From Eledone cirrhosa (Eukaryota): a stretch of 64,000 nt of DNA. The stretch spans positions 171,244,001-171,308,000 of the forward strand of contig OZ024741.1 in the NCBI GenBank assembly GCA_964016885.1. Reading direction: 5' to 3'. Shown here in pieces: positions 3,541-61,500 of this stretch; the first letter of the stretch is position 1, and each line of letters starts with the position of its first letter. A program made the position numbers and the translations under genes. A model generated the notes under the pieces. It ran no database searches. It worked only from the letters and a program-made list of their open reading frames with translations, and had not been told where the DNA came from.

Positions 3541-3892
3541 TTAAATTGCATTTGTGATAATATTTTACACGTTTTTATTGTTTGTAAACTTCCCCCTTTG
3601 TATTTGTGCCCCTGTAAACATATATATCTCTATCTCTCGCAATCATTCACCTGCATCATTGTTCCACCAATTATTGGTTTGAGTTTTACATGATTACACG
3701 CAAGGCCACCTACAAAATTTGGTTTTACTTCGTTACTATCTAACTCAATAATCCTAATTTTCCTATTCTATATCTGCATATATATCTCCCCTTAAACATA
3801 TATATATATATATATATATATATTATGAAGAGAGAAGAAACATTTAGATATAATTAGTAATAAAATGTATCATACCTAAACTGTTCCTAAAT

Positions 3893-3980
3893 TCCTCGAC
3901 TACGTAGTTTCGTGGCATAAACAAAAACAATATATCAAAGATATAGAGTCCTTGCGAGGTCTGCCGACTTATCAAGAGGA
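3893..3980 (-). ncRNA. Type I hammerhead ribozyme, U3-A8 core variant
   Basis: Minus strand: tcctc-TTGATAA-gtcggca...tgccac-GAAAC-tacgta-GTC-gagga. Confidence 0.8.
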
Positions 3981-4483
3981 TACCTCATTTTACTAGTCTC
4001 AAGAACGCGTCTACACGACGTGAGAAAGAATCCCAAAAGGCGGAGGGGGAGATAGTCACGCGATATAACGGTCGAGAAACAGAGCTAAGCCTCTTATAAC
4101 CACGAAGAAAATACCACGGAGGCGGAGGGGGTATTCATATCGAGGCCGTAGAAGAGGTAGTGAAGAAGGCGAGAAGTATGAGTAATGGAAGCTTTCCAGT
4201 TGTCCCCACACTTCAAAGATTGCTCGACCAGAGGGAGTTATTAATATATTTAGAAACACACAGATACATGCGGACACACACATATATACATGAATGCATC
4301 CGCACCCAACTGTGAGTTAAGGGTGCCAACTTCACCGATGTTGCTCAATGAATGACTGGGACAGACCAATTCAGTTTGAACCAGACTGAACCAGTATCAG
4401 AGTTAAAAATACATTATGAAGAGAGAAGAAACATTTAGATATAATTAGTAATAAAATGTATCATACCTAAACTGTTCCTAAAT

Positions 4484-4571
4484 TCCTCGACTACGTAGTT
4501 TCGTGGCATAAACAAAAACAATATATCAAAGATATAGAGTCCTTGCGAGGTCTGCCGACTTATCAAGAGGA
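4484..4571 (-). ncRNA. Type I hammerhead ribozyme, U3-A8 variant (unit 2)
   Basis: Copy of 3893-3980 at +591. Confidence 0.8.
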
Positions 4572-5074
4572 TACCTCATTTTACTAGTCTCAAGAACGCG
4601 TCTACACGACGTGAGAAAGAATCCCAAAAGGCGGAGGGGGAGATAGTCACGCGATATAACGGTCGAGAAACAGAGCTAAGCCTCTTATAACCACGAAGAA
4701 AATACCACGGAGGCGGAGGGGGTATTCATATCGAGGCCGTAGAAGAGGTAGTGAAGAAGGCGAGAAGTATGAGTAATGGAAGCTTTCCAGTTGTCCCCAC
4801 ACTTCAAAGATTGCTCGACCAGAGGGAGTTATTAATATATTTAGAAACACACAGATACATGCGGACACACACATATATACATGAATGCATCCGCACCCAA
4901 CTGTGAGTTAAGGGTGCCAACTTCACCGATGTTGCTCAATGAATGACTGGGACAGACCAATTCAGTTTGAACCAGACTGAACCAGTATCAGAGTTAAAAA
5001 TACATTATGAAGAGAGAAGAAACATTTAGATATAATTAGTAATAAAATGTATCATACCTAAACTGTTCCTAAAT

Positions 5075-5162
5075 TCCTCGACTACGTAGTTTCGTGGCAT
5101 AAACAAAAACAATATATCAAAGATATAGAGTCCTTGCGAGGTCTGCCGACTTATCAAGAGGA
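5075..5162 (-). ncRNA. Type I hammerhead ribozyme, U3-A8 variant (unit 3)
   Basis: Copy of 3893-3980 at +1182. Confidence 0.8.
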
Positions 5163-5564
5163 TACCTCATTTTACTAGTCTCAAGAACGCGTCTACACGA
5201 CGTGAGAAAGAATCCCAAAAGGCGGAGGGGGAGATAGTCACGCGATATAACGGTCGAGAAACAGAGCTAAGCCTCTTATAACCACGAAGAAAATACCACG
5301 GAGGCGGAGGGGGTATTCATATCGAGGCCGTAGAAGAGGTAGTGAAGAAGGCGAGAAGTATGAGTAATGGAAGCTTTCCAGTTGTCCCCACACTTCAAAG
5401 ATTGCTCGACCAGAGGGAGTTATTAATATATTTAGAAACACACAGATACATGCGGACACACACATATATACATGAATGCATCCGCACCCAACTGTGAGTT
5501 AAGGGTGCCAACTTCACCGATGTTGCTCAATGAATGACTGGGACAGACCAATTCAGTTTGAACC

Positions 5565-5638
<74 letters not shown>

Positions 5639-5832
5639 TCAGGTTTGAGGTTCACCACTGTATAGAGCTGGTCTATTCCGTATGGTCAATCGTAATGCAA
5701 TAATATAGAGAGTACTCAACGTAAAGCAGTTCAACCGTCTTTGTTTTTGTAGTTGGTGGTGCTATTACGGAGTTAAATATTAAAATGAAATGACAGGAGG
5801 CTGGATTTGTGTAAATCCTTGAAAGGTTTATT

Positions 5833-5890
5833 ATACTATGATCATTTCAATGACCGGGTTCCGTATGAATCCGGTGATATCATCAGGTAT
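5833..5890 (-). ncRNA. Type I hammerhead ribozyme
   Basis: Reverse complement of 10729-10786. Confidence 0.85.
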
Positions 5891-7308
5891 TCGAAATATA
5901 ATACGTGAATGTAATAGGTAAAATCCATGGGGCTGAAAATCGAGACCCGAGGGCGACCGCTATTCTGTTCCTTCAACCTCAGCCGGTCGCCCTGGAGTGA
6001 CGTGGCTAAATTTTATAGTATGCTACTACCGGTCAGATGAACGAAAACAGAAAGAGATGGGAGCATAGGTTAACGTCGATCCCATGACACAAGGTAAAAG
6101 AAAGAAAGAAAGGAAGGAGAAGAAGGGGGAAGAAAGAAGAAGAGAAGTTAGGGTTAATGTCAGCTAAAAGAGGAAGGTAACTACTACTGGTCAGATATAG
6201 GCAAGCAAGAGGGGGAAGGAATATAAGTCTGCAGGGAGGAGGAGAGGAGAGAAGGAAGGGAAGAGAGAGGTAGAAAAGTAAGGGTTGATGGCTACAAGAA
6301 GGAAGATAGAAAGGAAGAGGAAGAAAGGTCGATATTAATGTCAGACCACAGTCAAGCCAGGAGTGACGCGAGAAAATTTTCACAGGGACCCGCATCTTAG
6401 CGGAGATGGATATATTGGGAGTCAGTGTTTTACAGTGTTTAGACTTCTAGGATGAAGTTAAAAAAATTTAATAATCAATATTCAATATTAAAGAGGTTAG
6501 AAAATTTAAAGTTCAACAGTTTAACAATTAATTATATAATAGTTCCGATTTGTTCTGTAATTTAAAGGTACTATTTGGCGGTTAAAACAACGGCCGCGCC
6601 CCGGGCCCCATGGCGAATTAAGCCACGCCGAGTATTTTCATTTACTGAAAGAAGGGGAAATTTATTTTTCCAAGCACTCTAGGTGAGCTCGTTCGCCACG
6701 GAGCTGGTCGCGCCGCCATTAAAACCCATCCAACAGTCCGACAGAAAGTTGGAACTTTAAAATTTAGCTTAGAGAAGTAAAAGAGTAATAGTTGATAGCT
6801 ACAAGAAGGGAGATAGAAAGAGAGAGGAAGGAAGGTCGATATTAATGTCACACCACAGTCGGGCCAGGAGTGGCGCGACAAAATTTTCACAGGGACTCGC
6901 ATCTTAGCAGAGGTGAATATAATGGGGGTCAGTGTGTTACAATGTTTAGACTTATAGGATGAAGTTAAAAAATTAATAAATTAATAATCAATATTCCATA
7001 TTAAAGAGGTTAGAAAACTTAAAGCTCAACGGTTTCAGGTTGATATATATAATAGTTCCGATTTGTTCTGTAATTTAAAGGTACTATTTGGCGGTTAAAA
7101 CACCGGCCGCGCCCCAGGCCCCATGGCTAATTAAGCCACGCCGAGTATTTTCATTTACTGAAAGAAGGGGAATTTATTTTTCCAAGCACTCCAGGTGAGC
7201 CCGTTCGCCAGGGAGCTGGTCGCGCCGCCGCTAAAACCCACCCAACGGTCCGACAGAAAGTTGGAACTTTAGAATTTTGCTTAACTCTATCGGATGAAGT
7301 TGAAAGAA

Positions 7309-7370
7309 TTCAGAATAACATTCAGAATAACATTCAGAATAACATTCAGAATAACATTCAGAATAACATT
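7309..7370. repeat. 12-bp minisatellite (ttcagaataaca)x5
   Basis: Direct reading. Confidence 0.95.
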
Positions 7371-8683
7371 ATGAAACTAAGGAGTAAGAGGATTGAGAAT
7401 TGAACAAACAGAAAATTGAAGATTAGACATTCAAATAACTTCTATGAGGTTTTGGGTTGCGGGGTTTAATTAAATAGTCTTTTATGAAGAAACGTTAATT
7501 GTATTATGTAGATCTGTAATTTATCCTAGTGGGATGTAGAGTACGGGATATAGTCGTGTAATGTTTAATTTTTGTTCTCAGGAGGAGACCTTCTAGTGTC
7601 GTGTGCTAATGGGTACAGGTCCCAATGTGAGGAGTAGAAATACATGGATACATAGAAGTGGAATACGTGGAAGAGCTAATGGGTACAGGTCCCAATGTGA
7701 GGGTAGAAATACATGGATACATAGAAGTGGAATACGTGGAAGAGCACATTGGTACAGCAGAGGTATAAATATATAAACATATCAATATATAGGTATAAAC
7801 ATGTAAATAAACCAACAAGAGTGGTGTTGGAGTAAGATGGAGAAATCAGGACATTAATACAGCAAACAAAGATGTGAAGATATAGATAAACAAACAATAG
7901 TCGTTGTCTAGTAAATGTAGAGTTCAAGAGACAGGAGAAATACAATATAGTTCGGGTTGCGGTATTTATGTTCCCAGGGGGAAATATTCCAGTGACGTGT
8001 GCTGAGGGTACACGCGAGTAAAAGTCCGAATAAGGGAAGTAGAAAGTACATGGATGTATAGAGGTAGAATACGTGGAGGAGCATTAATACAGCAAATAAA
8101 GATGTAAAGATATAAATAAACAAACAAGAGTCGTTGTCTATTAAATGGAGAGTTCAAGACACAGGAGAGATACAATATAGTTCAAGTTGCAGTCAGATAA
8201 TGCATATAGATGTGGAAACAGTGCGTGTTCGAGTCTGGGAGTTCAGTGTGAGTTATACATGCCCAGAAGTATAGGGTAGCCATTTAGTTAATTCAGTGCA
8301 GTACAATACATGTTATGGTCCAGTCCGTGGAGTTTCGTCGAAGTTCGGATATTCTGTGAGGGGAGTAGCAAAGGGCCAGGCGAAAGCACCGGGTAGCCAA
8401 AGTTCGAATTGTGGTTAGATATATTCAGTCCCATGCCGCTGTTGATTATTACATTTTGAAGTGCTCAACATTTCAGGAACGTTATTTATTCAGGTTTGAG
8501 GTTCACCACTGTATAGAGCTGGTCTATTCCGTATGGTCAATCGTAATGCAATAATATAGAGAGTACTCAACGTAAAGCAGTTCAACCGTCTTTGTTTTTG
8601 TAGTTGGTGGTGCTATTACGGAGTTAAATATTAAAATGAAATGACAGGAGGCTGGATTTGTGTAAATCCTTGAAAGGTTTATT

Positions 8684-8741
8684 ATACTATGATCATTTCA
8701 ATGACCGGGTTCCGTATGAATCCGGTGATATCATCAGGTAT
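8684..8741 (-). ncRNA. Type I hammerhead ribozyme
   Basis: Copy of 5833-5890 at +2851. Confidence 0.85.
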
Positions 8742-10728
8742 TCGAAATATAATACGTGAATGTAATAGGTAAAATCCATGGGGCTGAAAATCGAGACCCG
8801 AGGGCGACCGCTATTCTGTTCCTTCAACCTCAGCCGGTCGCCCTGGAGTGACGTGGCTAAATTTTATAGTATGCTACTACCGGTCAGATGAACGAAAACA
8901 GAAAGAGATGGGAGCATAGGTTAACGTCGATCCCATGACACAAGGTAAAAGAAAGAAAGAAAGGAAGGAGAAGAAGGGGGAAGAAAGAAGAAGAGAAGTT
9001 AGGGTTAATGTCAGCTAAAAGAGGAAGGTAACTACTACTGGTCAGATATAGGCAAGCAAGAGGGGGAAGGAATATAAGTCTGCAGGGAGGAGGAGAGGAG
9101 AGAAGGAAGGGAAGAGAGAGGTAGAAAAGTAAGGGTTGATGGCTACAAGAAGGAAGATAGAAAGGAAGAGGAAGAAAGGTCGATATTAATGTCAGACCAC
9201 AGTCAAGCCAGGAGTGACGCGAGAAAATTTTAACAGGGACCCGCATCTTAGCGGAGATGGATATATTGGGAGTCAGTGTTTTACAGTGTTTAGACTTCTA
9301 GGATGAAGTTAAAAAAATTTAATAATCAATATTCAATATTAAAGAGGTTAGAAAATTTAAAGTTCAACAGTTTAACAATTAATTATATAATAGTTCCGAT
9401 TTGTTCTGTAATTTAAAGGTACTATTTGGCGGTTAAAACAACGGCCGCGCCCCGGGCCCCATGGCGAATTAAGCCACGCCGAGTATTTTCATTTACTGAA
9501 AGAGGGGGAAATTTATTTTTCCAAGCACTCTAGGTGAGCTCGTTCGCCACGGAGCTGGTCGCGCCGCCATTAAAACCCATCCAACAGTCCGACAGAAAGT
9601 TGGAACTTTAAAATTTAGCTTAGAGAAGTAAAAGAGTAATGGTTGATAGCTACAAGAAGGAAGATAGAAAGAGAGAGGAAGGAAGGTCGATATTAATGTC
9701 ACACCACAGTCGGGCCAGAAGTGGCGCGACAAGATTTTCACAGGGACTCGCATCTTAGCAGAGGTGAATATAATGGGGGTCAGTGTGTTACAATGTTTAG
9801 ACTTATAGGATGAAGTTAAAAAATTAATAAATTAATAATCAATTTTTCCATATTAAAGAGGTTAGAAAACTTAAAGCTCAACGGTTTCAGGTTGATATAT
9901 ATAATAGTTCCGATTTGTTCTGTAATTTAAAGGTACTTGGAGTGCTTGGAAAAATAAATTTCCCCTTCTTTCAGTAAATGAAAATACTCGGCGTGGCTTA
10001 ATTCGCCATGGGGCCCGGGGCGCGGCCGTTGTTTTAACCGCCAAATAGTACCTTTAAATTACAGAACAAATCGGAACTATTATATAATTAATTGTTAAAC
10101 TGTTGAACTTTAAATTTTCTAACCTCTTTAATATTGAATATTGATTATTAAATTTTTTTAACTTCATCCTAGAAGTCTAAACACTGTAAAACACTGACTC
10201 CCAATATATCCATCTCCGCTAAGATGCGGGTCCCTGTGAAAATTTTCTCGCGTCACTCCTGGCTTGACTGTGGTCTGACATTAATATCGACCTTTCTTCC
10301 TCTTCCTTTCTATCTTCCTTCTTGTAGCCACCAACCCTTACTTTTCTACCTCTCTCTTCCCTTCCTTCTCTCCTCTCCTCCTCCCTGCAGACTTATATTC
10401 CTTCCCCCTCTTGCTTGCCTATATCTGACCAGTAGTAGTTACCTTCCTCTTTTAGCTGACATTAACCCTAACTTCTCTTCTTCTTTCTTCCCCCTTCTTC
10501 TCCTTCCTTTCTTTCTTTCTTTTACCTTGTGTCATGGGATCGACGTTAACCTATGCTCCCATCTCTTACTGTTTTCGTTCATCTGACCGGTAGTAGCATA
10601 CTATAAAATTTAGCCACGTCACTCCAGGGCGACCGGCTGAGGTTGAAGGAACAGAATAGCGGTCGCCCTCGGGTCTCGATTTTCAGCCCCATGGATTTTA
10701 CCTATTACATTCACGTATTATATTTCGA

Positions 10729-10786
10729 ATACCTGATGATATCACCGGATTCATACGGAACCCGGTCATTGAAATGATCATAGTAT
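10729..10786 (+). ncRNA. Type I hammerhead ribozyme
   Basis: atac-CTGATGA-tatcaccgg..ccggtcatt-GAAA-tgatca-TA-gtat; intact core, palindromic stem III ATGATCAT, AUA cleavage triplet. Confidence 0.85.
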
Positions 10787-10931
10787 AATAAACCTCTCAA
10801 GGATTTACACAAATCCAGCCTCCTGTCATTTCATTTTATATATATATATAGTTATTAAATGAAACATGAAAAATACAAGAGGCCAATTTACACAGTTATA
10901 TTAGCTTCACGCTTGGAAGAAGTGGAGAAGG

Positions 10932-15966: not shown

Positions 15967-17286
<1,320 letters not shown>

Positions 17287-17444
17287 ATACTTTGAGAGGG
17301 TCATGTTGCCAATAAGAAACACACGCACCAGTTGCTTTCACTTCAATTTATTATATATTTATAAATTTATAAGTTTACAAATCTACAAACCTATAAATTT
17401 CTGGTTGGTTGGTTGGTTCCACAACCAGATAGTTGTTTATATAT

Positions 17445-17489
17445 AGTCATAGTCCTTTCGTCACACACTCTGTGACTTCTTCAGTGACT
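17445..17489 (-). ncRNA. Minimal type I hammerhead in 3' pseudo-LTR
   Basis: Minus: agtca-CTGAAGA-agtcac-agagtgt-gtgac-GAAA-ggac-TA-tgact. Confidence 0.85.
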
Positions 17490-17697
17490 GGGGATTGCTT
17501 TCTTTGTTTCTGTGCCTTTCCTTTCTTCTGTCCTACGCCATTTTGTTTCTGTGTGTGTGTTGTGCGCTCAGTTTGCGCATGCGCCACATCCGGGTGTCTG
17601 GGTGTGTTTGTGTTCATTTATCTATTTGTTTATTTATTTATTTATTTATTGTTGGTTGGTTGTTTGTTCTATGTGTGTGTATGTTATCATTTTGTCC

Positions 17698-19854
17698 TTA
17701 ATTGTAAGTTGTGATGTTGCTGTTCCACTCATATTTTCTATTTAATTTTGGTTGTAATTCTTTTATGCTTACTGCCTCTGTAATTTGCCTAAACATTGCA
17801 TCTTTTCTATGTGTGGATTCTATTTTTATTTCTATGTTCTCTAATTTACTCCTGTGTTCTATCTTAGCATGTTGGTAGAGCACAGATGATTCTTTATTAT
17901 CTTGAAGGTCTCGCCAGTGTTCATTTATTCGTTCCCCTATACTACGAGCTGTCTCACGTATGTGCACTATATTTTTGTTTCTACATTGTCCTTCAGTACA
18001 TCTTATGCTATACACTACAATTCTAGTTTTACAGTTAATATGGGGGCTTATTTTACAGGTTATACATTTCTTATCTATACATGAGGGTATTTGGAACGGG
18101 TATGTCTTGCTAATAAGTGTTTTTACGGAGGTACCTGGTCTTTCTACTATCTTAATATTGAGTTTATGTTTATTTAGGGCCCTTCTAAATTTGTAGGCTA
18201 GTTCGCCTCTAGGGGTTGTATTGATGAACATTACACTCTGGTATTTATTGCTATCATACCATGAGTTTATTCTATTGGCCTTGTTCCTAGTTCTTTCTAT
18301 TCTATTCCAAAATGTGCTCCTATACAAGGCGCAGGTCCCATTTATGTCATTATTTACCATTTTTTCCCATTTGGTTCTGGCTCCTCTATACACTCTGATT
18401 CTATCTCTCTGATTGTAGCCAGAGAACTGCATACGGTGGATGAAGTGTTGTATGTGTCTCTCTAGATCTTCGGGGTTGCACATGTGGGACACATTTCTCA
18501 TCACCCGTACCAAATCCGCAATCAGTATGTTGATTTTGGTATGGTCCGAAATGGCCGAGTTTCGGTGGATCAGATGTTTGGAAGTCATGGGTTTGGCATA
18601 ATGGGAATGGAGGATTTGTGTTTGGTTGTTAATGGTATCTAACCAGAGCTCTGTGTCTAGTACAGGTAATCGATGGTTGGGGTGTCTACTTGGGTAGTCT
18701 ATAGTAACTCTAATGCTCTGGTGGATGGAGTTTGCTATTTGCTGGATGCTTTCCATTGTGTTTTTCTCTAGTTCCTGACAGTTCTTTAGTGGGGGTGTCT
18801 TAACTACGATGTTTATATCATCTACGTAGCGGGAGTACGTTATCAGGGTTACGCTGCCTTCTAATTGTTCTTTAAGTTTTTGTTTAAGTCTACTGTCCCA
18901 CCATACCATGAATAAGTTAGCTATGTCGCCTGCAATGCTAACACCAATGGCTGCTCCTTCCTCTTGGGCATATGTTTTACCATTAAATTTGAACATATGT
19001 TCCTTAAGGGTTAATTTTATGCTGGCCCCTACCGCATGTGCAATCATTTTCTTCAGTCCATCGTGGTTTTCGGGTGTCCGTATGGCTCTGGTCCACCCGT
19101 TACATCTATTTGTGTGGGTTTTCTTGGCCATTGAGGTAATGGTAGGTGGTCTACCTCTTGCTGGTCTTGTAGGGCACAAGTTGCTAAGGTCATAAGTGTC
19201 TAGGTAACTATTACTATGGGTAAGCTTAAGTAGAAGTCCCAGCTCACTGGTATCAATCCCACGGAACTTAACCTTGCTCTCGCTGATCATTTCTACGCAT
19301 TTCTCCACAGCAAAATCCACGTCAATAGATGGATACAGGGACACAACATCCATACTGCCTATTATGCAGTTTGTTAGGTCCCCAGATCGGTTACTCGCGC
19401 CGATTCTGCTGAGGAGGTCCTCCGTGCTGTCACATACATCTGGGGACATCTCAATGATGGGGCGTATGATCAGGGAGAGGAAGTAGGACAGTCTGTAGTT
19501 ACTAGCAATGTTAGCCCCACAGACTGGCCGTGTTGGTGGTCCCGCGACAGGGTCACAGCCCGTTTTATGGTCTTTTCGAAGCCCATACAACGCCGGCACG
19601 TCATTGTTCCAGGCCTGGAAGTTGTTGGCAGTCCTTTTGTTGGGCTGCATTATATTCGTCCACATCACCATATGGGCATTGAGGGCTTTTTCTCTATCCT
19701 CATGCTCCTGTGGTGTTACCTCTCTTGTGTTAGTGATGTGGGGTTGCATTGCCTGGATGTAGTTTGGCAGGCTGTCAACCGACATTCTGCCAGACTTGTC
19801 TGTTGGAAAGCATGCTATCTCTCCATTACCTGAGCGCTGAATGAGCTTACGCAA
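17698..19854 (-). CDS. PLE polyprotein C-terminal part: reverse transcriptase + Cys linker + GIY-YIG endonuclease
   Basis: DKSG, GSMDVVSLYPSI, GAAIG, RYVDDI, LPVLD motifs; CxxxxCxxC linker; VVYSIRC..HIRET..RINEH..EA..I..LN. The frame is open upstream to about 19985, where a frameshift separates it from the N-terminus. Confidence 0.92.
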   Translation of the reverse strand: MRKLIQRSGNGEIACFPTDKSGRMSVDSLPNYIQAMQPHITNTREVTPQEHEDREKALNAHMVMWTNIMQPNKRTANNFQAWNNDVPALYGLRKDHKTGCDPVAGPPTRPVCGANIASNYRLSYFLSLIIRPIIEMSPDVCDSTEDLLSRIGASNRSGDLTNCIIGSMDVVSLYPSIDVDFAVEKCVEMISESKVKFRGIDTSELGLLLKLTHSNSYLDTYDLSNLCPTRPARGRPPTITSMAKKTHTNRCNGWTRAIRTPENHDGLKKMIAHAVGASIKLTLKEHMFKFNGKTYAQEEGAAIGVSIAGDIANLFMVWWDSRLKQKLKEQLEGSVTLITYSRYVDDINIVVKTPPLKNCQELEKNTMESIQQIANSIHQSIRVTIDYPSRHPNHRLPVLDTELWLDTINNQTQILHSHYAKPMTSKHLIHRNSAISDHTKINILIADLVRVMRNVSHMCNPEDLERHIQHFIHRMQFSGYNQRDRIRVYRGARTKWEKMVNNDINGTCALYRSTFWNRIERTRNKANRINSWYDSNKYQSVMFINTTPRGELAYKFRRALNKHKLNIKIVERPGTSVKTLISKTYPFQIPSCIDKKCITCKISPHINCKTRIVVYSIRCTEGQCRNKNIVHIRETARSIGERINEHWRDLQDNKESSVLYQHAKIEHRSKLENIEIKIESTHRKDAMFRQITEAVSIKELQPKLNRKYEWNSNITTYN

Positions 19855-20327
19855 GCCATTTGCAGATTTTTCTCCCAGTTGCTGGGCCTCTATTCTATTA
19901 TGCTTCTTGCTATACTGTTCTATAATATTTCTAAGTTCGGATTTAGCTATACTAAATTGTGCTTCTGTTTGTTCATCACCTGCGACGGCAACTGCGTGCG
20001 TTTGTTAAATGGTAAAGTCGTGGCGTGGACTCGTCGCAGGTCGAATGATTTATCGGAGGGATTATAAAACGGAGAGTTCTAGGCTGCTGCTTTATGTGTA
20101 CTAGTGCTATTGTTATTGTTAATTGTGTTGTTTCTATTTCTATTTCCACCAACTGCCTCATGGTTGTTTCTATGTCTCTCATAATTACTCCTGTCTCTTT
20201 CCACTGGCTCAATGTTGTTATCTACCCTATTTTGTGTGTCTGTGTGTTCGTCTTGGTTATTCTCTTTGTCCTTAGTCTCCCATATCCTGTTCCTTTTAAT
20301 CTTATTACTTTCCCTTATTTCTCTGAT

Positions 20328-21390
20328 TTATGTGCTACTGTCATTACTTGTTTTCTGTGTCTGTGTGTTTGTTAAGATTGTGGTGGTGGTGAGAGGCATT
20401 GAATGCGTGTGTGTTGTTGTTGTTGATGTGTGCTGTTGTTGACGTGTGTTGTTGTTGTCTCCGCGTGTGTTATCGTTGTTGTGTGTGTTGTTATTGTTGT
20501 TTGTGTCTGCGTGTCTGTTGTTGTTGTTTCTGGGTATGTTGCTATTGTTGTTGTTGTTGATGTGTGTGTTGTTGTTATTGTTGTTTGTGAAGGTGTGTCT
20601 GTTGTTGTTGGGATGTGTGTTGTATATGTGTGTGCGTATATTGTTGCTTTTGTTTTTGATGCTCCAGCGTAGTTTTGTAAATGATTTTTCTATTTCTGAC
20701 AGACAACTAATCATATTTACCTTCTTGAACGTCGCAAATTTGGGCGGCAGACATAACACAGACATTTCATCATTATCTATTTTTGCGTTCCCATAAATGT
20801 TGGTGTTTTTGTTGTTGAACTCTTCTGATAATGAGGTGTCGGCCATGTTGATACCGTCAATTTTGTCGGGATATCGATTGGTATACTCTATAGTATCCCG
20901 ATTTAGCTTTGTCTGTTTAAGCCACTTTAGTTTTCTGTTAAAGTGCTTATCACATTCTTGAGTAATGTACTGTTCTTCGGGGCGTATAAGGCTTATAAAT
21001 ATTAGTTTTTCTGCTGGTGTGGTGATTTTAGCTATTTCTTGTATTAAGTTACGCTTTAGTTTTTCTTGGTGACTTAATTCTCTATAGATCTTCTTTTTTA
21101 TGTTTAGAATTAAAGTTCGTTTTAGCCTATCTGCTTGTTTTTTGGTGAGTTGTAATCTTCTAACGTCGGTATTGATGGTGTTGGTGTAGATTCTAGAAGT
21201 GGTGCACAGTTTTATGAAGCGTAGTTGTCGAGATGTTATGGTTTTTCGTAGACAACAGAACATGGTGGTTTTCAGTATCTTGTTAGCCTGGCTAAGGCTT
21301 ACGATATTTCGTTTCTGAATTTGTTTAGCAAGATTCTTTATCTGAAATCGTGTGTTGAAACCGATATTGTTATACTTTGGGAGGGTCATG
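20328..21390 (-). pseudogene. PLE polyprotein N-terminal part (frameshifted from RT)
   Basis: ATG (MTLPKYNN) lies inside the 5' pseudo-LTR; basic N-terminus with EMSVLCLPPKFA..EIEKSFTKLRW; ends in an Asn/Thr/His low-complexity tract. Confidence 0.75.
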
Positions 21391-21529
21391 TTGCCAATAA
21401 GAAACACACGCACCAGTTGCTTTCACTTCAATTTATTATATATTTATAAATTTATAAATTTACAAATCTACAAACCTTTAAATTTCTGGTTGGTTGGTTG
21501 GTTCAACAACCAGATAGTTGTTTATATAT

Positions 21530-21574
21530 AGTCATAGTCCTTTCGTCACACACTCTGTGACCTCTTCAGTGACT
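21530..21574 (-). ncRNA. Minimal type I hammerhead in 5' pseudo-LTR
   Basis: Minus: agtca-CTGAAGA-ggtcac-agagtgt-gtgac-GAAA-ggac-TA-tgact. Confidence 0.85.
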
Positions 21575-21683
21575 GGGGATTGCTTTCTTTGTTTCTGTGC
21601 CTTTCCTTTCTTCTGTCCTACGCCATTTTGTTTCTGTGTGAGTGTTGTGTGCTCAGTTTGCGCATGCGCCACATCCGGGTGTC

Positions 21684-21775
21684 ATAATTTTTCCTATTTC
21701 CCACTCTACTACCCTAAGTATTGAGTACTCTGGTGCGTTACGGTCCATCTGGTTCCTTACCACAATTCCTTCGTA
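21684..21775 (+). mobile_element. Family B PLE tail fused head-to-head to the 5' end of the family A element
   Basis: Approximate reverse complement of 14027-14118 and 42778-42870; ends ccttcgt close to (TA)n. Confidence 0.8.
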
Positions 21776-21779
21776 ATAC

Positions 21780-21840
<61 letters not shown>

Positions 21841-22098
21841 AAAGAATAGAGGTGTAACACACAAGTTATTATATTTTGGTAAACGGAATAGAAAATGCTG
21901 ACAAATTGTTCACAGTTGAAAAATGGTTTAATTAGGAATAAAAGAGTATTAGTAATTGTATGGGTTAGTATTCAGTTGTGGTTTTAAGTTTTTAAGTTTT
22001 TACCGGTTGCGCATTTCTAAATGCTTTTCAAAAATAATTTTGAGATAGAGTGTCCGTGTTGTTTGCTCTGATCTGATTAGTTTTGGGAATTCTACCTG

Positions 22099-26152: not shown

Positions 26153-26296
26153 AATTAATATATCTAGTAACATATATATACAAAAATTGGCCAAAACTGC
26201 TACTACAGTAACGGTCCGGCTGCTGTCTTCTTAACAAACCACTTTTTGTATAAGTTCCCTGTGTCCACGTATTGGCTGGAAACTTAGCTGAGAATA

Positions 26297-26380
26297 GACT
26301 TCCCTGATGACGAAAGGCGTCTCCGTACGTTTCTTCGGAAACTATGTTTATTCCCTTTCAGAAACTAATTAGTTGGAGTC
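26297..26380 (+). ncRNA. Type I hammerhead ribozyme
   Basis: gacttcc-CTGATGA-cgaaaggcgt..acgtttcttcg-GAAACTA..TAGTT-ggagtc. Confidence 0.8.
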
Positions 26381-26820
26381 AAATTTTAGTAAGTAAGTTA
26401 ATCTTATAATGTTCTTATTTTACGTCTCTCATATTATTGTTCTGCATCCCCATGCATTGAACCACAAAGTTACTAAGACAAAACCTATATATTTGCTAGC
26501 ATAAGTATGCATCTGTGTATATATATGTTACTAGATATATTAATTCTTTATAATTAGCTCCAAATAATTTTGTCGAGCAAAAATTGGCCAAAACTACTAC
26601 TATAGTAACGGTCTGGCTACTGTCTTCTTAACAAACCACTCTTCACTGATTGACCTCGATGTCACGTGATTGATTCTTTTGAATTTGCCACCGACGCAGT
26701 AGGCAGTGATTTTTTCAATGGCTTGGAACTTAGTCCACGCTTTGCTTTTTTCCATCCACTGAATTATTTTTGTATAAGTTCCCTGTGTCCACGTATTGCC
26801 TGGAAACTTAGCTGAGAATA

Positions 26821-26909
26821 GACTTCCCTGATGACGAAAGGCTTCTCCGTACGTTTCTTCGGAAACTAAACTATGTTTATTCCCTTTCAGAAACTAATTA
26901 GTTGGAGTC
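26821..26909 (+). ncRNA. Type I hammerhead ribozyme (second copy)
   Basis: Same fold as 26297-26380. Confidence 0.78.
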
Positions 26910-26956
26910 AAATTTTAGTAAGTAAGTTAATTTTATAATTTTCTTATTTTACGTCT

Positions 26957-27040
<84 letters not shown>

Positions 27041-32138: not shown

Positions 32139-32212
<74 letters not shown>

Positions 32213-32218
<6 letters not shown>

Positions 32219-32399
32219 GCTTCTACTTTTGGCACAAGGTCAGCAAATGCCCAGTACATTACTGGTACTTTATTTTATCGACCCCGTAAGGATGAAAGGC
32301 AAAGTTAACCTCGGCGGGATTTGAACTCAGACCGTAAAGAGACGTAACTATGCTGGAAAGCATGGCGTCCGACTCTCTACCGATACTGCCAATTCACCA
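32213..32399 (-). mobile_element. tRNA-derived SINE
   Basis: Near full length; 3' end at (TA)n; 5' end abuts a family B tail. Confidence 0.88.
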
Positions 32400-32576
32400 A
32401 TGAAGGAATTGTAGTAAGGAACCAGATGGACCATAACGCACCAAAGTACTCAATACTTAGTGTAGTAGAGTGGGTAATAGGAATAAGTATGAGCTCAAGC
32501 CGTTTCGACGGTTATTTCTAGACTAGAAATAGCCGTCGAAATGGCTTGAGCTCTGTCGTCGGGGGTCATACTTGCT

Positions 32577-32580
<4 letters not shown>
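32400..32580. mobile_element. Family B head-to-head tail pair
   Basis: Axis ~32522 (atttctag-a-ctagaaat). Confidence 0.75.
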
Positions 32581-39262: not shown

Positions 39263-41365
<2,103 letters not shown>

Positions 41366-50532: not shown

Positions 50533-51028
50533 TATGCAAGTATGTATGTATACGTACATACATATATGTATACAGACGTACAGTATATATATATATATAC
50601 ATACAGGCACACATATATATATGCACGTATCAGTTTACCGAACATTTATTATAATGTTCGCTTTGTTCGTTTGTAAACAAACGAACAGCCTGATTTACGC
50701 CGTACAGTGTTTAGGTAACCACGTCACCTTTTTGTTCAACACTGACACAGGAACGATGTACTAGTTTCAAGCTTGTTAGCTATCGTCAGCACCGTATACC
50801 TTTCTGCCAGATGGTTGAACGTCCGAAAGTATATACTTTCCTTATGAAAATTAACGGCTGAGCAGCCTAATTTGCATATCGAGTGAGTTCAGTCGGCCAG
50901 GCGCACCGAAAACGATAAATGGAATAGAATGAAACGAAATTTCATTTCTCACTCTTAGTACGGCACTTACTTAAATGCAAGTATGTATGTATACGTACAT
51001 ACATATATGTATACAGACGTACAGTAGC

Positions 51029-51099
<71 letters not shown>

Positions 51100-51256
51100 C
51101 ATACGTTCCTGTGTCAGTGTTGAACAAAAAGGTGACGTGGTTACCTAAACACTGTACGACGTAAATCAGGCTGTTCGTTTGTTTACAAACGAACAAAGCG
51201 AACATTATAATAAATGTTCGGTAAACTGATACGTGCATATATATATGTGTGCCTGT

Positions 51257-51287
<31 letters not shown>

Positions 51288-51293
51288 TGCCTG

Positions 51294-51344
<51 letters not shown>

Positions 51345-51451
51345 GCTACTGTACGTCTGTATACATATATGTATGTACGTATACATACATACTTGCATTT
51401 AAGTAAGTGCCGTCTAAGAGTGAGAAATGAAAATTAATTTCATTCTATTCC

Positions 51452-51455
<4 letters not shown>
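50533..51455. mobile_element. ORF-less HHR unit (about 441-bp period, internal microsatellites) plus inverted arm
   Basis: atgcaagtatgtatg at 50534 and 50975; inverted arm ~51100-51455. Confidence 0.8.
50755..50793 (-). ncRNA. Minimal type I hammerhead
   Basis: Minus: ggtg-CTGACGA-t-agct-aaca-agct-t-GAAAC-ta-GTA-catc; palindromic stem III ACTAGT. Confidence 0.85.
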
Positions 51456-51523
<68 letters not shown>

Positions 51524-59513: not shown

Positions 59514-59553
59514 CCGAGAACAATTGTTTCACCTTCGCGGATCTTCAGCTCGG
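59514..59553 (-). ncRNA. Minimal type I hammerhead
   Basis: Minus: ccgag-CTGAAGA-tccgcgaaggt-GAAAC-aatt-GTT-ctcgg. Confidence 0.85.
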
Positions 59554-61490
59554 GATATATATGGTTATAGGAACAGGAAGGACAACCGTACGAACGCGCA
59601 TGCGCAGAAACTCGGTCACTTCACACAGGCAATAGTAGACTGCGTGCGGGGGGTGTAAGCGAGATAACTGCGAAAGTCCGGAAAGTTTTTTGGTTGAAAA
59701 TAAAATAAAAAAATAAAAAAATAGAATTACAAAGAATCTGTCCGGAGCCTTGTAGTTATGCAATAGATGTTTGGTGTCGTGTGGACAACGTGTGAAAAAG
59801 TCACTCCTTGTGTTTAGGCAATCACTATTTCGTAATCTCTTTAGGATAGTTATTCGTTCGTCAATACATAAGCCACACGTCGGATTTCTCCTTGCGTATG
59901 GCTTGGACTTAGTGATGGATTTCCATTGAATGGAGTACCCTATACTTGAGTCCTTGAGGGACCATACGTGGCTCGCGAGTTTCGTGGATGAACGTCTGTC
60001 CGGGTATCTGAAGGTAGACTGGTGGTTCAGGAAACGCTCCTTGAATCGTCCCTACGCCATGCCCACATAGGATTTGACCTCCTGTGATTCGTTTGGTCGG
60101 TTGGAAGTGACCACAGCTTCATAGATTACGGCTGGTGCGTTGCATTGTTGTTGAAGGGGGCAAGCTTCAGGATAACAGCAAGAGCACACTGGTGGGGTGT
60201 TGCTCCTAGGGCTGCTCGTGATGTGGGCCTTCATGTTCTTAGCGCAGGAGTATCCTAATTTAACTTTGTGTCGGTTAAAGATGGAGCGGTATTTATGACC
60301 TATGGGGAAGTGTCTATCTAAGAGGGCTAGAAATGTTTTTCCTACATTGGTTTTAACGTTGAGTGAGAAGGGAGGAGAGAACCAGATAGTTTGTCTATTG
60401 ATGCGCTTACTTTTTTTAATGGTGTTGTTGCTAGTGGGAGAGTAGGTGATAGGTTGTGAGAAGCCGCTGTTATCCAACGCCGTGTTATAGTAGGGTGCCG
60501 CCCTGTCAAAGATGGCCTTATTAGAAGAGAGGTTTGAGATTCTAGTACTGATATTCTTAACGAAGTTTCTAAAAACAGTGGGAGGGTGACATGAGTCCTT
60601 GTGAATGTAATTGAGTTTCTTGTTTAGCTTATGGAAGGGCCTGTGAGTGTGTGTGCGATGGTCTAAATTAATGTCTAAGAAATCCACGCTAGAGAGGTTG
60701 GTGGCCACTGTTATGCTAAGGCCTAACTCATTGAAGGTAGAAGCTAAGTCTTTTTTAAACCGGTCGAGGTCGTGACCACTTTTATGGCTCGATAAAATTA
60801 GTACATCGTCACGGTATATTCCCGTGTGGAAGTCCGAGAATCTAACACGTAATATGTCTAAGATAAATAGGCCAACCAAGTCACATACGTCAGGACTGTC
60901 AACCGATCCCATGGAGACGTCGAACAGGTCTGAAGATGTAGACTTCTTTGCCCAGGCTACTCCGTCGTTGAAGAGAAAGGTTTTCCGGTAGTGAGCGATG
61001 ATTTCCCTGTCTAAACCATCGACAGTGGTATAAGTGGTAGCGAAGTCCAACGCTTTATTTAACAGGGTCTCTGAGATCGACGGGTAAAAATCGACAATGT
61101 CAAACTGTGTGAACTTCGCTTTTATGGATTTTAAGGAGTTAAACCACTTAATTACGGAGTCGCTGTTCTCCCATTGGGGCAGGTTGGACTTGGTCCTAAT
61201 GTTCTTAACTATGTTTCTAAGTATGGCCTTACTGACTAGTCCCATATCTGTGCGTGCCGGGTTTATTAGTCTGCATGTGGGGTTAGAAGTAAAGTCTACC
61301 TTGTGATCTTTCAGGGTGAGGAACGCCTCTCGCTTAGCTAGAGATTGTAGCTTCTTATCTACCTTAAGGTCGGAGCCGAGTTCCTTGGCTTCTGTATTAA
61401 TGTCGTGGTAGGCCATAGGGTTAGCTTTCTTATATTTAGAAGTAATAGCGTTATGGGCCAGGTGGCGGAAAGTGGTGTTGTCGACTTCGT
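59545..61490 (-). pseudogene. PLE RT + GIY-YIG reading frame with one in-frame TAG (60052-60054)
   Basis: TLKDHK..CRLINP, FDIVDFYPSI, GIYRDD, FLDI; CSCCYPEAC linker; VIYEA..YVGMA*GRFKERFLNH..CGLC..LNTRSD..RCPH continues in frame. Confidence 0.88.
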
Positions 61491-61500
61491 AAATAATGTG

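Follow-up and report, generated by a model that had tools for sequence, protein, structure and literature searches.

A PLE joined head-to-head to the 3' end of an unrelated PLE family in Eledone cirrhosa, and a minor peak of 5' ends at a predicted hammerhead cut

The window analyzed here, a stretch of 64,000 nucleotides (G000:C2:171,244,001-171,308,000), belongs to a 3.0-Gb genome that is rich in (TA)n tracts and short repeats. In this window, the 5' end of a Penelope-like element (PLE) on the minus strand (element A) abuts at 21683 the 3' end, its last ~95 bases, of an unrelated PLE family on the plus strand (family B). The two pieces lie head-to-head, with both 3' ends directed outward and TA tracts on either side (Table 1). 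The joining of an A 5' end to a B tail, which had been described in a sequence-only reading of this DNA, is present. Beyond the TA tracts, both outer flanks consist of other repeats. The right flank (21838-22095) is a very young high-copy repeat, with 40 scored of 849 candidate copies being 99-100% identical. On the left, a TA-bound element with direct and inverted parts (16078-17210), related to 26243-27013, adjoins the 3' TA tract of A. Elsewhere in the window there are three near-identical 591-base tandem units (3818-5567), a duplicated and inverted block derived from a ~510-base unit (5632-10846), and a ~430-base unit that is repeated head-to-tail and has TA runs within it (50622-51457; also L029 and L184), retrozyme-like in layout.

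Table 1. Features of the joined A and B pieces, in positions of the window
Feature	Position	Strand	Basis
Left (TA)n tract, at A 3' end	17204..17281	no strand	sequence
Element A, full-length PLE (4.4 kb) with a direct pseudo-LTR at either end; of the family's two kinds of 3' end it has the short (tail-less) one	17279..21683	-	sequence, repeat comparison
A 3' pseudo-LTR	17279..17598	-	313/320 identical to 5' copy
RT and C-terminal GIY-YIG-like frame, 768 aa stop to stop	17698..20004	-	translation, Pfam, motifs by eye
N-terminal frame of A, 364 aa, not continuous with RT frame	20328..21422	-	translation
A 5' pseudo-LTR; start coincides with cluster of A 5' ends (likely transcription start)	21364..21683	-	6 A arms in 30 loci end at A positions 4074-4091
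Minimal type I hammerhead of A itself, with the cut predicted between 21535 and 21534; window copy uncut	21530..21574	-	read by eye; stem II folds
Junction homeology GG(T)GTC, corresponding to B +1..+6; exact GTC at 21681-21683	21678..21683	+	sequence, alignment
B piece, +7 to long (tail-bearing) 3' end of family B	21684..21774	+	similarity to family copies
Right (TA)n tract, at B 3' end	21781..21837	no strand	sequence

The RT frame of A contains YVDD, a CX4CX2C linker, and a degenerate second endonuclease motif (the endonuclease motifs were read by eye), and matches Pfam RVT_1 at 22.6 bits (E 1e-4), under the cut-off of 29.6. Judged from the YVDD frame and this sub-threshold match, A appears to possess the RT domain of a PLE of the C-terminal endonuclease type. 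The linker, CIDKKCITC, also conforms to the Neptune-clade CX2-5CxxC motif between RT and endonuclease, which is defined in PMC8557442. At the endonuclease end of the frame, the GIY-YIG/CCHH motifs recognized by eye are degenerate; a Pfam match is absent, and there is a weak likeness to the GIY-YIG frame found at 40274 of the window. The N-terminal frame had no Pfam match. A minimal hammerhead core is present in each of the A pseudo-LTRs, which are 320-base direct repeats. An Rfam scan of the window returned microsatellite noise only and no hammerhead. The 5' ends of A in the window and at loci L034, L039, L050, L051, and L055 are clustered within ~17 bases at the start of the pseudo-LTR. The cluster likely marks the transcription start, upstream of A's uncut hammerhead; among the A insertions read, a peak of 5' ends at A's own hammerhead cut was not evident.

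Positions in B are numbered from the first base 3' of the predicted cut (+1, after GUC). The A 5' pseudo-LTR terminates ..CGGGTGTC at 21683, and B sequence starts at 21684, where the best 40 of 912 candidate copies are 96-98% identical. The exact word common to the A end and B is GTC, corresponding to B +4 to +6. The gtc microhomology reported earlier thus exists, but it is distinct from the GUC of the B cleavage triplet. In ungapped comparison, B GGGGTC (+1 to +6) has one mismatch to 21678-21683, and the alignments begin at query base 59. When the A end was slid along a whole intact B copy, the best anchored match was +1 to +6 (score 5.5 vs 4.0). The position of the joint can therefore be explained without cleavage. 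There is no remnant of B's own inverted arm at the joint. A second copy of the joint was not found among 40 scored of 890 candidates, and the amplification of an A-B chimera as a unit was rejected on this basis. Two further ideas about the B piece were rejected: its 'ataatt' differs by a single base from the common ATACTT subfamily of B and is not junction noise, and 'ATAAT' does not define a separate B subfamily, since the inverted partner arms of such copies read ATACT. The A and B pieces look similar in age, though the comparison (1-2 private changes in ~90 bases of B vs 7/320 between the A pseudo-LTRs) is a weak test that does not separate them.

We consider it very improbable that the joint is an assembly chimera of two repeats. 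The contigs of four sequencing runs cover A and B separately, and none of those listed spans the joint, as would be expected of a chimera; where repeats and long TA tracts flank the site and the contigs are this short, such a hole proves nothing. The joint lies inside a 416-Mb contig, its microhomology is ordinary, and the same layout recurs at another locus, L350.

Family B is very abundant: 35,058 exact matches to a 21-base tail word occur genome-wide (control, 0), and in 600 kb picked blind there was approximately one copy in every 30 kb. The majority of copies are built as small palindromes, consisting of TA, a short inverted arm, a long arm, and TA. Long copies extend into PLE frames, and those of L083, L342, and L100 match the PLE located at 60 kb of the window (33-49% identity) and not A. 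A and B are therefore unrelated families, as had been supposed. The PLE at 60 kb (59545-61500), the second in the window, is frameshifted and is kin to B's parent family instead of A. Several other arrangements of B were encountered. In G000:C1:14,234,975-14,242,996, dozens of B tail words are spaced at 58-base multiples and form a B-derived satellite. At L087-L090 (G000:C2:276.95-276.98 Mb), B from -40 is fused behind the frame of another PLE in a 4.3-kb tandem unit. At L070 and L332, the 3' ends of other families are joined head-to-tail with B, each at -9. Finally, a SINE-like 190-base family is joined at the very edge of the B tail, with the TA tract lost, in the window (32175-32580) and at L128 and L203.

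A complete type I hammerhead (stem I, YUGANRA, a 54-56 nt stem II region, GAAA, stem III, and GUH) was recognized in 10 distinct long copies of B. The core pair is U3-A8 in eight of them, C3-A8 in one, and U3-G8 in one, and position 7 is free. The L130 copy folds into a three-way junction (z -2.3), while L100 does not (z -0.3). A U3-A8 core occurs in PLE hammerheads (Cervera and de la Pena 2014, PMC4209133), and a hammerhead variant with this pair is active in vitro (Perreault et al. 2011, PMC3088659). The B hammerhead resembles those treated in the accessible parts of these two papers in its type I fold within a pseudo-LTR and in its U3-A8 pair. It has a stem III of 4-5 bp and a long stem II, the minimal dimer form being that of A, and its activity is a prediction from sequence. 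The existence of a predicted cleavage site in B, as the sequence-only reading had it, is well founded on these copies. The available text of a paper on octopus repeats (PMC13282606) does not mention hammerheads.

The 5' ends of B copies were then compared with the predicted cut. In a set of 63 unselected arms, 49 begin upstream of the cut, mostly between -30 and -60 in the stem II hairpin, and five begin at -1 to +2, three of these with microhomology. The automatic 5'-end calls for these arms heap at -38 and -20 (the result of short references and of the stem III palindrome), and seven rows were corrected by eye. In the blind 600-kb sample, 18 of 20 copies begin upstream of the cut and none at +1. 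A genome-wide pattern for tail-bearing arms that start between -2 and +8 gave 1,004 matches (control, 0), of which the first 100 were read by eye. Starts at +1 numbered 33, while neighboring positions had four (-2), three (-1), six (+2), two (+3), two (+4), five to six (+5), and five (+6); 26 rows fell at +7/+8, where the edge of the pattern and TA microhomology coincide, 12 were intact, and the remainder were ambiguous. G microhomology was absent from 22 of the 33 +1 rows and present in 11. The same pattern applied to tail-less arms gave 1,117 matches (control, 63), and 100 rows read by eye contained 26 starts at +1 (14 of them clean), eight at -2, five at -1, three at +2, two to four at +3, five at +4, six at +5, and four at +6. 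The +1 counts are not absolute rates, since the pattern leaves out some partner types.

Mapped in this way relative to the GUC, the +1 position was the largest bin in both genome-wide screens. A first reading of 59 subfamily loci, according to which B has no peak of 5' ends, was overturned by these screens. The peak at B's predicted cut is real and minor, comprising a few percent of copies. Its cause might also be a stop of reverse transcription at stem I or the G run, though this fits less well. In several copies (L270, L333, L334, and L336), both arms stop at +1 and are separated by a linker of untemplated bases or by a captured piece. In L333, the captured piece is ~330 bases of B's own reading frame. 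The otherwise continuous B copy of L340 has nine extra bases precisely at the predicted cut. Jumps between templates, or re-joining, at the end of a cut RNA are suggested by L340 and L333. Across the family as a whole, ribozyme-cut B RNA probably does serve as a template from time to time.

To see how often arms of different origin are paired, we typed the insertions of both families. The A 3' word has 17,856 matches genome-wide, and the first 100 of them resolved into 75 insertions, of which 59 were read from sequence and 16 were assumed from opposite-strand pairs. An inverted A arm was found in 49 insertions (33 read, 16 assumed), compared with three in which A is joined head-to-head to the TA-bound end of another repeat (L307, L309, and L312; the partner at L309 lies in a tandem unit, which makes its orientation uncertain). 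Ten insertions run straight into TA, 11 are of other or nested type, and two were not assigned. Where both ends could be seen, one arm was tail-bearing and the other tail-less in 27 of 28 A insertions and in 152 of 160 B insertions; for B, only eye-checked pairs were counted, as automatic typing mislabels internal TA sites. The window locus, with A tail-less and B tail-bearing, fits this rule, a weak indication of about 2:1. The rule is followed by five of seven typed cross-family pairs (the window, L350, L330, L016, and L309, but not L066 and L020). It is also obeyed by L438, which appears to be the product of a secondary event, and is thus weak for a single site.

Arms of different subfamilies are rarely combined even within family B. 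Both arms belonged to the same subfamily in 86 of 92 B arm pairs (37% expected at random), and a mixed origin was clear in one pair and possible in about four. Mixing between arms thus occurs, but it is rare, and the 'co-operation' between families put forward by the sequence-only reading was an overstatement. Two of the 33 tail-bearing +1 rows (23 read in context and 10 judged from the printed sequence), L350 and L338, have another repeat as their head-to-head partner. L350, in which an A-like tail-less arm is followed by TATATAT and by B from +1 with its tail, is a near twin of the window locus. Further cross-family joints involve B from +1 (L352), from -2 (L330), and from -35 (L066), with L352 and L330 having come as leads from a screen dominated by intact copies of longer-spacer subfamilies. 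Since these B joints were found in searches restricted to the cut region, they give no sign that such joints prefer the cut. At L352, B is head-to-head with the 5' region of another element's reading frame, which we take, as a candidate label, to be that of an R4/Dong-type non-LTR element.

The layout at the window locus is that of a known PLE insertion with a foreign second arm. We give an even chance to the reading in which A and B were reverse-transcribed from two RNAs at the two ends of one cut. The PLE endonuclease would cut a (TA)n tract, and both cut ends would prime reverse transcription, as they do in vitro for another PLE. At one end, the A transcript would be copied from the tail-less start site to the transcript 5' end, where the 6 A arms in 30 loci stop; at the other, copying of a B RNA would begin at the tail. 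The 3' ends of the two cDNAs would then anneal over GG(T)GTC, and B would take the place of the inverted second arm usual in these elements. Had the B RNA been cut by its ribozyme, the six bases would be the entire cDNA terminus; had it been uncut, an overhang would have been trimmed.

This two-RNA reading agrees with the two-armed layout being the rule among A insertions, with the pairing of tail-bearing and tail-less arms seen in both families and matched at the window, and with the lack of a B inverted arm remnant there. The three A insertions joined head-to-head to TA-bound ends of other repeats, the L350 layout, and the few B pairs with arms of different subfamilies also argue for it, as does the activity of a purified PLE protein, which uses two start sites and both cuts and extends the two strands (PMC11167929). 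Against it, the tail rule holds in only part of the cross-family pairs and holds at L438 too, microhomology alone predicts the position of the joint, secondary joining with deletion has precedents (L051 and L438, and cases in PMC3846280), and the predominance of one-subfamily arm pairs looks as if one RNA serves both ends. The proposal that two families entered in the same integration is thus backed by the recurrence of cross-family head-to-head joints, with L350 having the same layout, but is weakened by A-type elements that join older neighbors with deletion. As to the state of the B RNA, a ribozyme-cut template at this locus is unlikely, and an uncut template trimmed to the best microhomology is somewhat doubtful. 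The cut version draws on the +1 peak, with its 33 and 26 rows per 100 compared to 2-6 and 2-8 per position in the remainder of -2 to +6. Most B copies start upstream of the cut, however, and according to the accessible text of PMC11167929 the reaction in vitro can do without the hammerhead, and reads starting at its cut are absent. The peak at the GUC that the sequence-only reading asked for is present at the level of the family, while at the locus the same six bases are also the best microhomology. All such weights are our judgement from the observed rates.

The idea that A was inserted next to an older B copy, taken over both of its forms, falls just short of an even chance. In the first form, which is a tentative possibility, A landed in the TA tract beside the short arm of a palindromic B, and its 5' end was joined to the far arm by microhomology, with ~100 bases deleted at that time or in a later microhomology-mediated deletion. 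The nearness of the joint to the cut would then be a by-product of the GG(T)GTC match, which is the best that the A end can make on intact B. Such joining has precedents among A-type elements: at L051, a microhomology of seven bases links the element to an older neighbor, and about 150 bases have been lost, while at L438 the partner is the near arm of a small palindromic B copy. The high copy number of B would make such an encounter easy, elements chain along TA tracts, as do the repeats flanking the window locus on both sides, and both microhomology joins of PLEs without target duplication and microhomology deletions are described in PMC3846280. What this form requires, however, is the loss of the entire near arm; far-arm joints (the window, L350, L307, and L312) are at least as numerous as near-arm joints in the loci read, and the pieces look alike in age, weak as that test is.

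In the second form, which we regard as improbable, the older B was one-armed and derived from ribozyme-cut RNA, with (TA)n directly followed by +1. A would have entered the TA tract later, its 5' end would have annealed to the first six bases of B, and the intervening repeat would have been lost. The cut would then be real, yet the A and B events would be separate. Copies with TA directly before +1 do exist (L272, L275, L279, L347, and L349), TATATAT remains between the partners in L350, and the SINE-like family mentioned above is likewise joined right at the border of B, where the TA tract has been lost. Such one-armed copies are rare, however, amounting to one of 63 unselected arms (L099, at +2) and to none of 20 in the blind sample.

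It is known that endonuclease-bearing PLEs insert with pseudo-LTRs, that a 5'-truncated copy lies next to them in inverted orientation, and that the tail is present on one side only (Craig et al. 2021, PMC8557442; Arkhipova et al. 2013, PMC3846280). The window locus and the insertions described in the available parts of these papers are alike in their head-to-head arrangement in (TA)n, pseudo-LTRs, hammerhead, one-sided tail, and microhomology at the 5' joint. They differ in that the inverted arm at the window locus comes from another family, and in that the tails are 60-80 bases long instead of 30-40. An arm from another family cannot result from the self-priming proposed in PMC3846280. With the anole element Poseidon_Ac studied in vitro (Frangieh et al. 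2024, PMC11167929), the families described here would share two RT start sites that give rise to the tail, the cutting and extension of both strands, and an AT-rich target. In contrast to what the accessible text reports for Poseidon_Ac, whose hammerhead is dispensable in vitro, the genomic 5' ends of B form a peak, albeit a minor one, at the predicted cut. In R2 (PMC3774820), a ribozyme cut sets the cDNA end and the 5' junction, as proposed here for B; in R2, however, the cut is the normal route and is made by an HDV-like ribozyme, while in B a few percent of copies are concerned. A preprint on retrozymes (10.64898/2026.07.22.740005) and a review (PMC6765202) have, in the parts available, uncut or circular RNA as the template.

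The window joint may also be set beside events known from non-LTR elements. In L1 twin priming, both cut ends prime reverse transcription on one RNA, and the cDNAs are joined by microhomology, while in U6-L1 chimeras a second RNA is used and the pieces are head-to-tail. The window joint differs from both in being head-to-head between two PLE families. In the literature searched, which covered few subscription journals, neither cross-family arms nor a genomic peak at the hammerhead cut of a PLE turned up. The most far-reaching interpretation is that the cut ends in PLE integration are independent priming sites that can be loaded with RNAs of unrelated families, that hammerhead-cut 3' products are true germ-line templates, and that the window locus records both, with the A cDNA reaching the transcript start, the B cDNA reaching the ribozyme cut, and the two annealed over six bases; as a whole, we hold this to be distinctly doubtful.

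How PLEs build inverted one-tailed insertions and what their hammerheads do are standing questions, and the function of the hammerhead in PLEs is called unclear in the available text of PMC8557442. Tens of thousands of B copies with a sharp, minor peak at +1 would be the trace that cleavage in living germ cells has left in the genome, and this peak makes the hammerhead question answerable by counting. If the cross-family arms are true single events, the inverted arm could no longer be ascribed to self-priming alone, and a single cut could receive a different RNA at each of its ends.
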